64,000 bases of DNA from an uncultured Herminiimonas sp. (GCA_964406085.1 CAYOQL010000006.1:3657-67656), one strand, 5' to 3'; counted from the first letter of the stretch, positions 42,365 through 45,442 are shown. Made by a program: numbers and translations. The notes: generated by a model not told the origin, from the letters alone.

Positions 42365-43498
42365 CTACTCATCATCATCGCTTAGGTCCATCGCCGTGAA
42401 TGAAATATGCTCTACCTTTGCGTAAGATAAGTCGACGAGGGCGTTCGAATCCACATTGGAAAGCTGAACATTAGCCGCAAGTCCGTCATCGAAAGAAAAA
42501 GAAACATATACCGGCGCGGTATTGATATAACGTCGAACTATTTGGTTATGGAGGACAAATGGATAGAACTTATCCTCTGAGTCCCATGGCGAACGGTCAT
42601 AGTCCGGATAGTTTATGGTGACCACCAACGACGTTCTAACAATCAGCTCAAAGGTGGCATCCTCTTTCGAAACATCTGTGAGATTTCTCGATAGATAATC
42701 GACAGACTCAATCTCAACATTGTCTACCTCTGCTTCAAAAAGATTTTCCTCCATATCATTATCGATTTCAAACTCCGCATTCATCAATTGCTTCTTGATG
42801 TTCTTATCTATGGCCTCCTTCCAATCGGAGAAAAATTCTTCAGCAAACTTAGCCGGCTCTGCCAGCCGTTCAGTATTTTTCACCACGAGCGCCAGAAGTT
42901 CATCCAAACGGCCAATCGAGATTAAATTTTCTCGCAGAGCACAGAATGACTTTACGTCTCGGTCTTCACTGATGACGTAAAGCTTGTGCCCACGCCGCTT
43001 GCTAATAGCATCAATGGCGTGTAGCACGAAGGCGTCAGGGAACTCAGCTTTCTTGCCCGAGGTTGCGAATGGCGGAGACTCATCGAAATATGCGTCAAAC
43101 ACTGTATCGATGTTGACGGTATTTGTCGCAACCACTTCTACACTGGTATTGTCCAGGAATGCCTGAAATTTCGTCTCAAGCGCAGCATAGATTTCGTCTG
43201 CGGTAACGGGAGTGAATATCTTATGCCAAGGCAATGTCTCTGTATTACGAAGAATCATTGCGTCTTTCTTGACTTTGGTGATTACTGTATGAGCTTCTAC
43301 GGATTTTCGCTTCATGTGACGACGAATCTCGCGGACGTTTACGTCAGTGATAAGGAGGTGACAGTCATCTTCTTCGAGATGAGACTGTAACGCCCGAAGC
43401 ACACCAGAGTCGAACTGAAAATTCCTGGCCATGTAAGTTTCAGTGTCCAAGAAGAAAAGCTTGCTAAGCAGCGTTTGGTCGTCAGGCATGGTGGTCAT
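42365..43498 (-). CDS. PIN-like nuclease domain protein (DUF4935-like) with an uncharacterised C-terminal half
   Basis: 377 aa. FFLDTETY near the N-terminus, ITDVNVREI and KKAEFPDAF resemble the PIN-like DUF4935 pattern. The acidic tail ends DLSDDDE. Confidence 0.55.
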   Translation of the reverse strand: MTTMPDDQTLLSKLFFLDTETYMARNFQFDSGVLRALQSHLEEDDCHLLITDVNVREIRRHMKRKSVEAHTVITKVKKDAMILRNTETLPWHKIFTPVTADEIYAALETKFQAFLDNTSVEVVATNTVNIDTVFDAYFDESPPFATSGKKAEFPDAFVLHAIDAISKRRGHKLYVISEDRDVKSFCALRENLISIGRLDELLALVVKNTERLAEPAKFAEEFFSDWKEAIDKNIKKQLMNAEFEIDNDMEENLFEAEVDNVEIESVDYLSRNLTDVSKEDATFELIVRTSLVVTINYPDYDRSPWDSEDKFYPFVLHNQIVRRYINTAPVYVSFSFDDGLAANVQLSNVDSNALVDLSYAKVEHISFTAMDLSDDDE

Positions 43499-43565
43499 CT
43501 CCGATTTTTAATGTAAATGCCACTATTTCAGTAGCATTTGTGGAGCTATTGACGTCCGCTATCTG

Positions 43566-43578
43566 GCCGATAGCGGAC
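43566..43578 (+). repeat. 13-mer GCCGATAGCGGAC, copy 1 (right arm of perfect palindrome 43552-43580)
   Basis: ACGTCCGCTATC-TGGCC-GATAGCGGACGT, seen directly. Confidence 0.9.
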
Positions 43579-43595
43579 GTTTCGTAAACGTCAAT

Positions 43596-43626
43596 AAAAA
43601 TGCCCATCATCTTTCGAGGTGGGCAT
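43596..43626 (-). terminator. Rho-independent terminator after the TIR gene
   Basis: Minus strand reads ATGCCCA-N13-TGGGCAT followed by TTTTT. Confidence 0.55.
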
Positions 43627-43681
43627 CTGTGACATTTGGACGCGTAAGAATATTATGCCGAACCTGTTGTGGACAATAACG

Positions 43682-44380
43682 CTAGACAGCAACCAGCTCA
43701 GCGATTTTCGCCGCGACCACCGCCATTGTATCTTCTGCAGTGCTTAGGCCGCTTCGAGATGCGAGCATAGGGCTGACATTGAGAAGAGCGCCATACGTTG
43801 TATTGTGCACGATTGGAACGAGCTGATTACGCATCAGCAGTACCGCAAGCTCTTTGTCGGCAGTGCCCTCTCTTGGGAGGCTAGCCAGCAGCGCAGGGGT
43901 CACCAGCACAAGCCCGATTCGCGAATTCGCTAAGCCCTTGTCAATGGCGCGCATCATCGGCACGCCCAGCGCGAGGTCATTCTCGCTGAACCAAACTTTC
44001 ACTCCAGCCGCCACAAGCAAGTCGCGCAGCTCTTTGGCTGAACCCTGCCGGTCGTCCCACGCGTGGCAGAGGAAGACGTCACGAAGGTCAGGTTGATGCG
44101 CTGCTCGCGTTTCAACGGTTTCGCGGATTGGAGTGAGTGACTGCACTTGTGCAGGGGTGTACGACAAGGCCGAGCCGGCTTTCGACCAGCGCGGCCGCGA
44201 ACTGCCAATGGAGCTACCACCGCCGCTGCCTGACGAGGAGTAGGACGAGCCGTAGCTGCTGCTCGATGCGGAATAAGACGTGCCGCCACTGCGGTAGCTG
44301 CTACGGTAACGGCATGCAGGGCAGGCCGCAGCCGCGGCCGATGAGCTATGCCCACGTACTGGCGCTGTACATCTAGACAT
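43682..44380 (-). CDS. TIR domain protein with an N-terminal Cys pair and Ser/Tyr/Gly-rich low-complexity region
   Basis: C-terminal DVFLCHAWDDRQGSAKELRDLL...VWFSENDLALG...IGLVLVTPALL fits a TIR fold pattern. The N-terminal 75 aa are SSYRSGGTSYSASSSSYGSSYSSSGSGGGSS. Confidence 0.75.
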   Translation of the reverse strand: MSRCTAPVRGHSSSAAAAACPACRYRSSYRSGGTSYSASSSSYGSSYSSSGSGGGSSIGSSRPRWSKAGSALSYTPAQVQSLTPIRETVETRAAHQPDLRDVFLCHAWDDRQGSAKELRDLLVAAGVKVWFSENDLALGVPMMRAIDKGLANSRIGLVLVTPALLASLPREGTADKELAVLLMRNQLVPIVHNTTYGALLNVSPMLASRSGLSTAEDTMAVVAAKIAELVAV

Positions 44381-44480
44381 GTCGTAATCCTTCCATTCGC
44401 AATCTCCCTTTCAAGGTAAATCTACAGTAGTCATCATAAGCTTCTAAGTATGAGTATTGCCGGTTCGACTACTAACGAAT

Positions 44481-44495
44481 ATCCCATAAATATGG
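44481..44495. promoter_or_regulatory. ATCCCATA-AA-TATGG motif, copy 1
   Basis: About 100 bp upstream of the TIR gene start (44380). Confidence 0.5.
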
Positions 44496-44521
44496 CGTTG
44501 GGTTTTTAGCGTCTACTTCTG

Positions 44522-44534
44522 GCCGATAGCGGAC
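44522..44534 (+). repeat. 13-mer GCCGATAGCGGAC, copy 2
   Basis: Exact 13-mer. The left palindrome arm is degenerate. Confidence 0.9.
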
Positions 44535-44578
44535 ACTTAATAAAAATTTCATGTAGCTGCATCGTATCCTCTGCACAT

Positions 44579-44600
44579 AAAAAAACCGGCTTTAGCCGGT
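44579..44600 (-). terminator. Rho-independent terminator after the YHYH micro-ORF
   Basis: Minus strand reads ACCGGC-TAAA-GCCGGT followed by TTTTTTT. Confidence 0.65.
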
Positions 44601-44616
44601 CTGTAGAATCTCATAA

Positions 44617-44742
44617 TCAATGACAGTGATAACCGCCGTTTTTACGGTCATTGTGACAACCATTGCTATCAGTTCCACCTGAATGGGCAAAAGCAAACGA
44701 GGCAATTGAGGTCAACAGTAAAGCCATGAATATCTTCTTCAT
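44617..44742 (-). CDS. 41-aa secreted YHYH-motif peptide (below the ORF-track size cutoff)
   Basis: My translation is MKKIFMALLLTSIASFAFAHSGGTDSNGCHNDRKNGGYHCH. It is a signal peptide plus an HSGG..GCH....GGYHCH motif, with its own terminator. Confidence 0.55.
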   Translation of the reverse strand: MKKIFMALLLTSIASFAFAHSGGTDSNGCHNDRKNGGYHCH

Positions 44743-44801
44743 CTTTATTCCCTATTTTTTAGTTATGTGCATGGAGTGTAAGGGATGAGGCGTTTTGCCA
44801 C

Positions 44802-44816
44802 ATCCCATGAATATGG
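44802..44816. promoter_or_regulatory. ATCCCATG-AA-TATGG motif, copy 2
   Basis: About 60 bp upstream of the YHYH micro-ORF start. Confidence 0.5.
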
Positions 44817-44868
44817 CAAAAATCTCTGTGTGCCGCCCTAGTGAAGGAAATTCAAGTGTCAGCTTTTA

Positions 44869-44881
44869 GCCGATAGCGGAC
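44869..44881 (+). repeat. 13-mer GCCGATAGCGGAC, copy 3
   Basis: Exact 13-mer, 43 bp downstream of the TIR-TM gene stop. Confidence 0.9.
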
Positions 44882-44923
44882 TACACCACCGTGAACGACC
44901 GATAACTGGTAGGGTAAGCGAAA

Positions 44924-45442
44924 TTACTTTTGGCTAAAAAGCCAAAACAGTAAGCCCCCAACTACAAGAAAATTCCGAGTCTTCTCTTCCTCTTCTTTTC
45001 TTCGCGCTACAACTTGCTTTGCTTGAAGCTGCTCCATTACGAAAGCGTGTGCTTGACTCATGGCGGTCTGACGGTCTTTGAATACAGGCAAATATTTTAA
45101 TCCACTGATAAAGCCTGGAAGATGGAGTCCATCCTCCAAAACTAGCGGGAGAATTGTTTTGTGCAGCGAGTGTGCTTTACCAATTTCTTGAGAAACCCAT
45201 TCAGATGCTTTTGCGTTGGAACTCCATAGAAGAATGACCAAATCGCAGGCAGCGATGGCGGTTGAAATCTTGTCGGATAGAGTCTCGCTAGCTAATACAG
45301 AGTGCTCAGCAACAAACACATTGATTCCGGAGCCAACAAGAGAATTTTTCAGTTCTTCAACGTTTTGTAGGTCGGAGGTGGAGTAGCTAACAAACACATT
45401 AAACATTTCTGGATTCATTTTCGTTGAATGACTGGTATCCAA
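44924..45442 (-). CDS. TIR domain protein with a C-terminal transmembrane helix
   Basis: FNVFVSYSTSDLQNVEELKNSL...VFVAEHSV...DLVILLWSSNAKASEWVSQEIG is TIR_2-like. The C-terminus NFLVVGGLLFWLFSQK is hydrophobic. An alternative start exists at 45418. Confidence 0.75.
   Translation of the reverse strand: MDTSHSTKMNPEMFNVFVSYSTSDLQNVEELKNSLVGSGINVFVAEHSVLASETLSDKISTAIAACDLVILLWSSNAKASEWVSQEIGKAHSLHKTILPLVLEDGLHLPGFISGLKYLPVFKDRQTAMSQAHAFVMEQLQAKQVVARRKEEEEKTRNFLVVGGLLFWLFSQK

Follow-up and report, generated by a model that had tools for sequence, protein, structure and literature searches.

A Cosus-family PIN_12 gene and two unrelated TIR genes in a Herminiimonas-like defence island: probably independent genes rather than one system

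Background

Do two TIR-domain genes that lie beside a nuclease-like gene in a bacterial defence island form a single signalling system, or do they merely share a location? The question is raised by positions 42365-45442 (minus strand) of a 64,000-nucleotide stretch of DNA from an uncultured Herminiimonas sp. (GCA_964406085.1 CAYOQL010000006.1:3657-67656), which we call the window and from whose first letter all positions are counted. This segment encodes a 377-amino acid (aa) protein with a PIN_12 domain and two TIR proteins, designated here TIR-A and TIR-B. The original prediction had proposed that the three genes are an undescribed defence module in which the PIN-like protein is a new effector for a TIR-made signal, or else that the TIR proteins act alone as enzymes consuming nicotinamide adenine dinucleotide (NAD+), that is, as NADases.

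The known systems with which the locus was compared are the Thoeris types, namely type I (ThsA with SIR2-SLOG), type II (Macro-transmembrane), type III (multiple TIR proteins with SLOG), type IV (caspase-like) and the newer types V-XI. The likeness consists of small TIR proteins that score on ThsB models and of neighbouring TIR genes, an arrangement also seen in type III. The locus differs in that the window contains no effector bearing a signal-binding domain and in that neither TIR-A nor TIR-B was found in an operon with a conserved partner at any locus. In our assessment the segment is quite probably a set of independent stand-alone genes (three, or four if a small YHYH gene is counted) in a mosaic defence island and not one system, because neighbours differ from locus to locus and the three genes show no linkage.

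Results and discussion

Gene content of the segment

The open reading frame (ORF) list contains, on the minus strand, the PIN-like gene and the two TIR genes exactly where they had been described as adjacent, together with a fourth gene that the original prediction had overlooked:

42365-43498, minus strand: PIN_12 (DUF4935) protein, 377 aa, or 374 aa from the ATG at 43489 (Pfam PF16289)
43682-44380, minus strand: TIR-A, 232 aa (Pfam TIR_2, PADLOC PDLC00424)
44617-44742, minus strand: YHYH-domain gene with signal peptide, 41 aa (ORF list, NCBIfam NF033223 YHYH_alt)
44924-45442, minus strand: TIR-B, ORF of 172 aa, about 160 aa from the probable start M13 at 45406 (Pfam TIR_2)

The YHYH mini-gene occupies the 543-bp stretch between TIR-A and TIR-B. 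Its product matches NF033223 with an E-value of 1.1e-13 (51 bits against a cut-off of 30) and carries the sequence features HSGGTDSNGCH...GGYHCH. The same stretch was considered as the site of an RNA or a degraded gene and rejected as such, since Rfam gave no matches at E <= 1 and the YHYH gene lies there instead. Neither ThsA nor any SIR2, SLOG, SAVED or Macro protein was found among the scanned window proteins with Pfam and PADLOC, in agreement with what had been read from the sequence, and the TIR genes are thus orphans with respect to any known Thoeris effector. The PIN_12 protein, and the product of a neighbouring HAD gene described below, had no PADLOC match.

Gene neighbourhoods in other genomes

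If the three genes worked together, their homologues might be expected to travel together. The PIN_12 loci used here were sampled by a genome scan with our PIN family alignment (A2), giving 80 loci of distinct species, to which close metagenomic homologues were added. At the 89 PIN_12 loci from outside the source organism, phmmer detected no relative of TIR-A or TIR-B within 7-10 kb. In the reverse direction, a PIN_12 profile search found nothing at 33 TIR-A loci or at seven TIR-B loci, and PIN_12 was likewise missing from all 60 further metagenomic TIR-B loci. All three genes occur together only in three loci (L001-L003) that belong to the same organism as the window. The proposal that the PIN-like protein serves as effector of a TIR-made signal has therefore failed the co-occurrence test in both directions.

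What does lie beside PIN_12 varies. By Pfam, its 144 immediate neighbours include AbiH (six), phage integrase (five), CAP12-type TIR (three), type I restriction and others, and no recurring TIR family was seen among its 133 second neighbours. PIN homologues at 54-65% identity stand solitary beside known or candidate defence genes, such as PLD+MZB, a PD-(D/E)XK/UvrD pair with GmrSD, and CTD8/AAA_23. In addition, a systematic survey of TIR signalling (Yirmiya et al., 10.64898/2025.12.03.692087) describes 29 effector types, and PF16289, PIN and DUF4935 are missing from its text, supplements and effector tables.

The PIN_12 protein and its kinship with Cosus

The PIN protein matches Pfam PF16289 (PIN_12) over residues 16-181 with an E-value of 1.9e-26 and 94 bits against a cut-off of 32. 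Four acidic residues, D18, E57, D155 and D179, do not vary across the family alignment. In an AlphaFold2 model with a predicted local distance difference test score (pLDDT) of 90, the N-terminal half adopts a VapC-like PIN fold (Foldseek probability of about 1), while the C-terminal half has a long helix that packs against an antiparallel sheet with very long strands. The latter half, which had been described as unassigned, remains so by sequence models: Pfam, NCBIfam and PADLOC have nothing that matches residues ~200-377.

Modelled alone, the C-terminal domain gave a pLDDT of 87 and no match in the Protein Data Bank (PDB) at E <= 0.001. Its best structural matches are lipid-binding folds of the SMP/TULIP/BPI-like kind, with TM-scores of ~0.3, and no structural likeness to SLOG, SAVED, CARF, Macro or STING was found. 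A profile of the domain matched 1130 clusters among 1.84 billion representative proteins. The best 150 of these 1130 clusters have the same architecture (proteins of ~350-370 aa with the domain at ~200-360) or are fragments, which indicates that the domain is not shuffled between effectors. It is accordingly a family-specific domain, and no known unrelated family with partner genes of its own was matched by the C-terminus.

Matelska et al. 2017 (PMC5499597) were the first to place this family among the PIN domains; they described proteins of ~350 aa whose C-terminal alpha/beta region was unassigned and whose genes were mostly monocistronic. More recently, the integron cassette brc24, called 'Cosus', was reported to encode a PIN12-domain protein (preprint 10.1101/2024.07.02.601719). 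As a single gene, Cosus renders Escherichia coli fully resistant to T7, and the mutations T12A, D14A and D96A lower resistance more than 10^5-fold; its authors consider a dual activity possible and evolved an escape phage with a tail-protein mutation (10.1101/2024.07.02.601719).

We took the Cosus sequence (382 aa) from plasmid pKAZ2 (KR827391.1, ALG87191.1) and found it to match PF16289 with an E-value of 2.4e-36 (126 bits). Pairwise, Cosus and the window protein are 21% identical over the PIN domain (E 4e-10). The relationship extends over both domains, in that hhalign of the PIN family profile (A1) against Cosus gave a probability of 99.3% and an E-value of 1.9e-20 over 315 columns, placing window residues 5-335 on Cosus 1-340. 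The aligned region includes a C-terminal motif, D-x-S-x-x-D-S-x-D-K, which the window protein has as DYDRSPWDSEDK and Cosus as FDFSVRDSIDKDY. D18, D155 and D179 of the window protein correspond to D14, D153 and D177 of Cosus.

The two proteins thus share PF16289, similar length (382 versus 377 aa), a two-domain architecture, and common D18/D14, EFPDA, S-x-D and C-terminal D-x-S-x-x-DS-x-DK motifs, and PIN_12 genes stand alone in defence contexts. They differ in that the window gene lacks attC and is not an integron cassette, that its anti-phage activity is a prediction, and that the closest relatives of its product (54-80% identity) are uncharacterised environmental sequences. Taken together, the comparison makes the PIN gene a member of the Cosus family that most likely acts on its own. 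From the fold and the conserved acidic residues, it may act as a nuclease on phage or host RNA. The notion of the PIN protein as an undescribed module finds no support here, as it falls within the family of Cosus (Brc24), for which a single gene protects against T7.

Two other known arrangements resemble the PIN gene in part. VapC toxins share the VapC-like N-terminal PIN fold and the acidic residues, whereas the window protein has a long helical insert and an extra 170-aa C-terminal domain; in contrast to VapBC, the PIN_12 family is monocistronic (Matelska et al. 2017, PMC5499597). No VapBC-type antitoxin gene precedes it, the 184 bp upstream of the PIN gene holding a terminator and a palindrome and no ORF of at least 50 aa. 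The second is an operon of PIN_12 with AbiH, in which the PIN_12 protein shares ~40% identity with that of the window across 97% of its length. There, an overlapping AbiH gene follows PIN_12, whereas the window PIN gene is followed by a convergent HAD_SAK_2 gene and no AbiH.

The PIN_12+AbiH operon was confirmed on the E. coli IncX4 mcr-1 plasmid pEC111 (L104, 6414-8556) and in marine Gammaproteobacteria; besides L104, the loci of this subfamily are L010, L011, L012, L018 and L024. Many enterobacterial plasmids carry a PIN_12 gene of this AbiH-linked subfamily.

TIR-A, a solitary gene on many mobile elements

TIR-A matches Pfam TIR_2 at residues 102-193 (E 3e-13) and, over its full length, the PADLOC ThsB model PDLC00424 (E 1.7e-117). 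Its N-terminus contains invariant C4, H11, C20 and C23 (alignment A5), which likely form a zinc knuckle. These are followed by a FUS-like tract rich in Ser, Tyr and Gly, a feature that had been remarked upon from the single sequence; across homologues its length varies and its composition is kept. A conserved linker (RPRWS...YT...LTPIR) leads to the TIR domain, in which DVFLCHAWDDR and K176-E177-L178 are invariant, so that E177, the catalytic glutamate, is retained.

Homologues fall into at least 8000 clusters. The best 120, at 74-88% identity, come from Yersinia, Pseudomonas, Glaciimonas, Vogesella, Chromobacterium, Nitrosospira and Gallionellales. TIR-A is solitary in a Mu-like prophage (between head and tail genes), within the conjugative-transfer cluster of an integrative and conjugative element (ICE)-like element of Yersinia pseudotuberculosis, and in a Pseudomonas citronellolis island. 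It is present on 27 IMG/VR viral contigs and 342 plasmid records, 141 of the latter at 80-90% identity and mostly from Klebsiella, and is flanked by insertion sequence (IS) elements on one IncF plasmid. The protein is ~80% identical between the Herminiimonas-like chromosome and Klebsiella IncF plasmids. Deposited phage genomes yielded no close homologue and a single weak match at 31% identity.

Among solved structures, the TIR domain of TIR-A is closest to PdTIR (3H16), AbTir (7UWG/8G83) and TcpB (4LQC), with E-values of 2e-14 to 1e-11. TIR-A resembles these Tcp-type proteins in that both combine an N-terminal self-association region with a C-terminal TIR domain and are encoded by solitary genes. 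The N-terminus of TIR-A differs, being a Cys/His knuckle with a Ser/Tyr/Gly tract and not a coiled coil. TIR-A would be an autonomous enzyme, its activation involving N-terminal self-association. A bolder extension, to which we grant an outside chance, is that TIR-A typifies a very widespread class of autonomous TIR enzymes borne by mobile genetic elements, the switch of which is the Cys/His knuckle together with the prion-like Ser/Tyr/Gly tract. Our literature search found no functional study of the TIR-A family.

TIR-B, a minimal TIR domain with a hydrophobic tail

TIR-B matches TIR_2 with an E-value of 7.5e-19; its match to ThsB_TIR is weaker, and several PADLOC ThsB models score at ~1e-8. 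An alignment of homologues places the true start probably at M13 (45406). The protein is a minimal TIR domain with an invariant SEWVSQEIG motif that includes W82 and E86. The catalytic glutamate is therefore kept here as well, and E86 aligns with the catalytic-Glu motif of the plant Roq1 TIR. At the C-terminus is a conserved hydrophobic tail of 12-13 residues (FLVVGGLLFWLF) in which G162 and W167 are invariant (alignment A4). This is what had been proposed as a C-terminal transmembrane helix; its 12-13 residues are short for a membrane span. The amoeba protein TirC offers a precedent for a membrane-tethered, otherwise auto-active TIR NADase (PMC13142454), and TIR-B may, by analogy, be tethered in a TirC-like manner.

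The TIR-B family is small (166 clusters, mostly 159-aa proteins from Betaproteobacteria) and its contexts are varied, including a prophage tail region and an island with RES and SIR2-HerA. All-against-all BLASTP of the neighbours found no conserved TIR-B partner. One candidate partner, a ~230-aa gene upstream of TIR-B in many loci, was discarded, being related between near-identical contigs only.

In Rhodocyclus purpureus (L099, 5640-10387), a TIR-B homologue has a RES-domain protein of 421 aa on one side and a SIR2_2 + HerA (DUF87) pair on the other. Three NAD-related defence genes stand there consecutively.

Terminators and an intergenic repeat

The spaces between the genes contain two intrinsic terminators and three copies of a ~30-bp repeat:

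43593-43627, minus strand: intrinsic terminator after TIR-A, a 7-bp G+C-rich stem followed by UUUUUAUU (read from the sequence)
44583-44602, minus strand: intrinsic terminator after the YHYH gene, GACCGGCUAAAGCCGGUUUUUUUU (fold z -2.2)
43552-43580, no strand assigned: full repeat copy, a perfect palindrome with 12-bp arms, ACGTCCGCTATC-GGCCA-GATAGCGGACGT
44518-44544, no strand assigned: second repeat copy, a half-palindrome 3' of the YHYH terminator
44855-44881, no strand assigned: third repeat copy, directly past the TIR-B stop codon

The RNA fold of 43540-43681, 3' of TIR-A, reaches -49 kcal/mol (z -4.9). No clear terminator follows TIR-B, GajB or the PIN gene, where the fold is no more stable than that of shuffled sequence. 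Thus, the idea that each gene has a terminator of its own holds for the YHYH gene and TIR-A and, judged by the RNA folds, fails for TIR-B and the PIN gene; the terminators that do exist sustain the earlier argument against a simple operon.

The repeat, GTCCGCTATCGGCC(A/T)..., occurs 3' of three consecutive island genes (TIR-B, the YHYH gene and TIR-A). Its 14-mer has six matches in the window against 0.39 expected, and a copy lies outside the island at 14963-14976, between convergent core genes. All 100 loci examined from other organisms lack it. It looks like a host-specific repetitive extragenic palindromic (REP)-like repeat or an operator.

The surrounding island

The trio is cargo of a low-GC mobile defence island inserted in comM. 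At about 41 kb, where comM is truncated, GC drops from ~0.55 to ~0.45. The source organism is a Herminiimonas-like betaproteobacterium, because a core-gene protein groups with that of Herminiimonas aquatilis. The neighbouring features are as follows:

40563-41042, minus strand: comM fragment, C-terminal only (Mg_chelatase_C, Pfam)
41149-41439, minus strand: HTH gene (Pfam)
41536-42216, plus strand: HAD_SAK_2 gene, convergent with the PIN gene (Pfam)
45627-47123, minus strand: GajB of a complete Gabija pair (PADLOC, E 6.5e-185)
47041-48759, minus strand: GajA of the same pair (PADLOC, E 6.4e-235)
50.5-56.7 kb: Tn7-like genes, namely a Mu-type (TnsB-like) transposase, TniB and two TniQ paralogues

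HAD_SAK_2 denotes a 'Swiss Army Knife' RNA-repair HAD phosphatase. A homologue (E 4e-28) is found in a Burkholderia sp. (L004, 19596-20213), ~8.5 kb from the closest genomic PIN_12 homologue; none is present at the remaining PIN_12 loci.

On the other side, Gabija adjoins TIR-B directly upstream, on the same strand and with no terminator between them. GajA has 572 aa and GajB ~474-498 aa, and their genes overlap. Gabija is neighbouring context, separate from the PIN/TIR trio. Beyond it, the interval 49587-58638 also holds a tyrosine recombinase and a possible TnsA-like ORF without a family match. Searches around 48.7-49.9 kb and 40.95-41.6 kb gave no convincing Tn7 end repeats, and the trio may belong either to the Tn7-like element or to a different one stacked at the comM site.

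Further along, 58770-62807 includes a gene for a UvrD/helicase IV-like protein (909 aa) whose C-terminus is a Top1-type zinc ribbon. It is followed by one for a 407-aa LmuA-like protein with a Cap4 nuclease domain (PADLOC LmuA, E 2e-54). No LmuB is in view: from the LmuA-like gene to the end of the window there is no ORF of at least 100 aa, ORFs crossing that end being unlisted.

Points against independence and competing explanations

Several observations count against reading the segment as independent genes. In three Psychrobacter species PIN_12 is preceded on its own strand, at a distance of 59-82 bp, by a gene for a ~280-aa CAP12/Pycsar-type TIR protein (L017, 245-2263; L020, 2285-4331; L031, 489-2069). 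Cosus itself is preceded, in its source integron, by two ThsB-containing cassettes. TIR genes do, then, recur beside PIN_12, though from different TIR families; cross-talk in trans may be compatible with the missing co-occurrence, and TIR-A relatives outside our sample may belong to true Thoeris operons, given that PADLOC files the protein under ThsB. The Cosus precedent has weaknesses of its own, for Cosus is only 21% identical in the PIN domain and is known from a preprint alone, the text of which does not name D153A or D177A among the strong mutants, both appearing in the primer list only. Finally, in HMMER alignments, the catalytic Glu of TIR-A is offset by a few residues with respect to solved TIR structures. 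As to the Psychrobacter pairs, they are the sole recurrent TIR-PIN_12 adjacency found, are confined to a single genus and involve a different, effector-type TIR family, and further Psychrobacter PIN_12 loci are without the CAP12-type TIR gene.

Among the competing explanations, the one that fares best accepts stand-alone TIR genes and supposes that they serve the mobile element otherwise, either as Tcp-like effectors directed at eukaryotes or in counter-defence, as enzymes consuming or mimicking immune signals derived from NAD. The closeness of the TIR-A domain to the PdTIR, AbTir and TcpB group favours this, as does the presence of TIR-A on prophages, an ICE-like element and conjugative plasmids, including those of clinical Klebsiella. 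We nevertheless judge it improbable, as the host, a Herminiimonas-like betaproteobacterium, is environmental, the genes are flanked by Gabija and a Cosus-family gene, and no secretion signal is evident in the sequence of either TIR protein.

It is very unlikely that the TIR genes are non-functional leftovers of a decayed Thoeris system whose ThsA has been lost. Both proteins match PADLOC ThsB models, there is no effector, and the island is a mosaic with a truncated comM and mobile-element genes, all of which such decay would accommodate. Both ORFs are, however, intact with invariant catalytic motifs, and TIR-B has no conserved neighbour elsewhere either. TIR-A is solitary in all other contexts examined and 74-88% identical across distant hosts, which argues for selection on the solitary gene.

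An equally slender prospect is a true Thoeris-like module, in which a TIR-made signal derived from ADP-ribose (ADPR) would bind the C-terminal domain of PIN_12 and turn on its nuclease. The genes are indeed adjacent on one strand with no other effector in view, PADLOC scores TIR-A as ThsB, the PIN protein has a C-terminal domain without known function, and TIR genes precede PIN_12 in the three Psychrobacter genomes and the Cosus integron array. Set against these are the complete lack of co-occurrence (89 PIN_12, 33 TIR-A and 67 TIR-B loci), the protection afforded by the homologue Cosus as a lone gene, the strong terminators between genes, and the absence of PIN_12 from the 29 effector types of the TIR survey. 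Furthermore, the C-terminal domain is never recombined with other effector domains, nor does it look like any known nucleotide-binding sensor. TIR-to-PIN signalling was consequently rejected on the strength of the two-way co-occurrence, the Cosus precedent and the structure of the C-terminal domain.

A looser version, an unlinked 'mix-and-match' Thoeris in which orphan TIR proteins feed an ADPR-derived signal to PIN_12 through its C-terminal domain, would explain why three TIR families are found upstream of PIN_12 (here, in Psychrobacter and in the Cosus integron). We hold it no more credible than the linked module; the very small residual chance that we leave to TIR-to-PIN cross-talk is owed solely to the unrelated TIR genes that again precede PIN_12 in Psychrobacter and the Cosus integron. 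Novelty in the form of TIR-A as an autonomous enzyme is more likely than a mix-and-match Thoeris.

Least credible of all is an array of integron cassettes without integrase (cluster of attC sites lacking integron integrases, CALIN) with the palindromic repeat as its attC sites, since, for all that three short genes in a row are each followed by the ~30-bp element and Cosus itself is an integron cassette, 41000-49200 contains no RYYYAAC ... GTTRRRY pair on either strand, no integron integrase is adjacent, and the repeat is missing from all 100 loci of other organisms and has a copy in a core-genome intergenic region at 14963, the missing core sites and the core-genome copy being the grounds on which the attC reading was rejected.

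Conclusions

On the preferred reading of independent genes, the PIN_12 protein would pair a VapC-type metal-dependent nuclease domain, whose four acidic residues are intact, with its family-specific C-terminal domain, and would restrict phage alone, as Cosus does. The PIN domain would cleave phage or host nucleic acid, probably RNA, and the C-terminal domain may serve assembly or the recognition of a trigger. TIR-A and TIR-B, mutually unrelated, would each be autonomous, infection-triggered NAD+-consuming enzymes, whose outcome may be abortive infection or superinfection exclusion. Control would be exerted in TIR-A by the Cys/His knuckle and the Ser/Tyr/Gly-rich self-association region, and in TIR-B by the hydrophobic tail, through tethering or clustering. 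Of the roles raised by the original prediction, that of the TIR proteins as NADases acting alone is still the most plausible, their chemistry being predicted from sequence.

TIR genes adjoining a nuclease in a defence island are not evidence for signalling, and a tempting false lead is thereby removed. An environmental 377-aa DUF4935 protein is now linked to Cosus. Its C-terminal domain is conserved and exclusive to the family, spans at least 1130 clusters at 50% identity and has no solved structural relative, which makes it a sensible target for studies of phage sensing by Cosus-type proteins. Of the loose ends, the TIR-A family is the most interesting and deserves a direct functional test.

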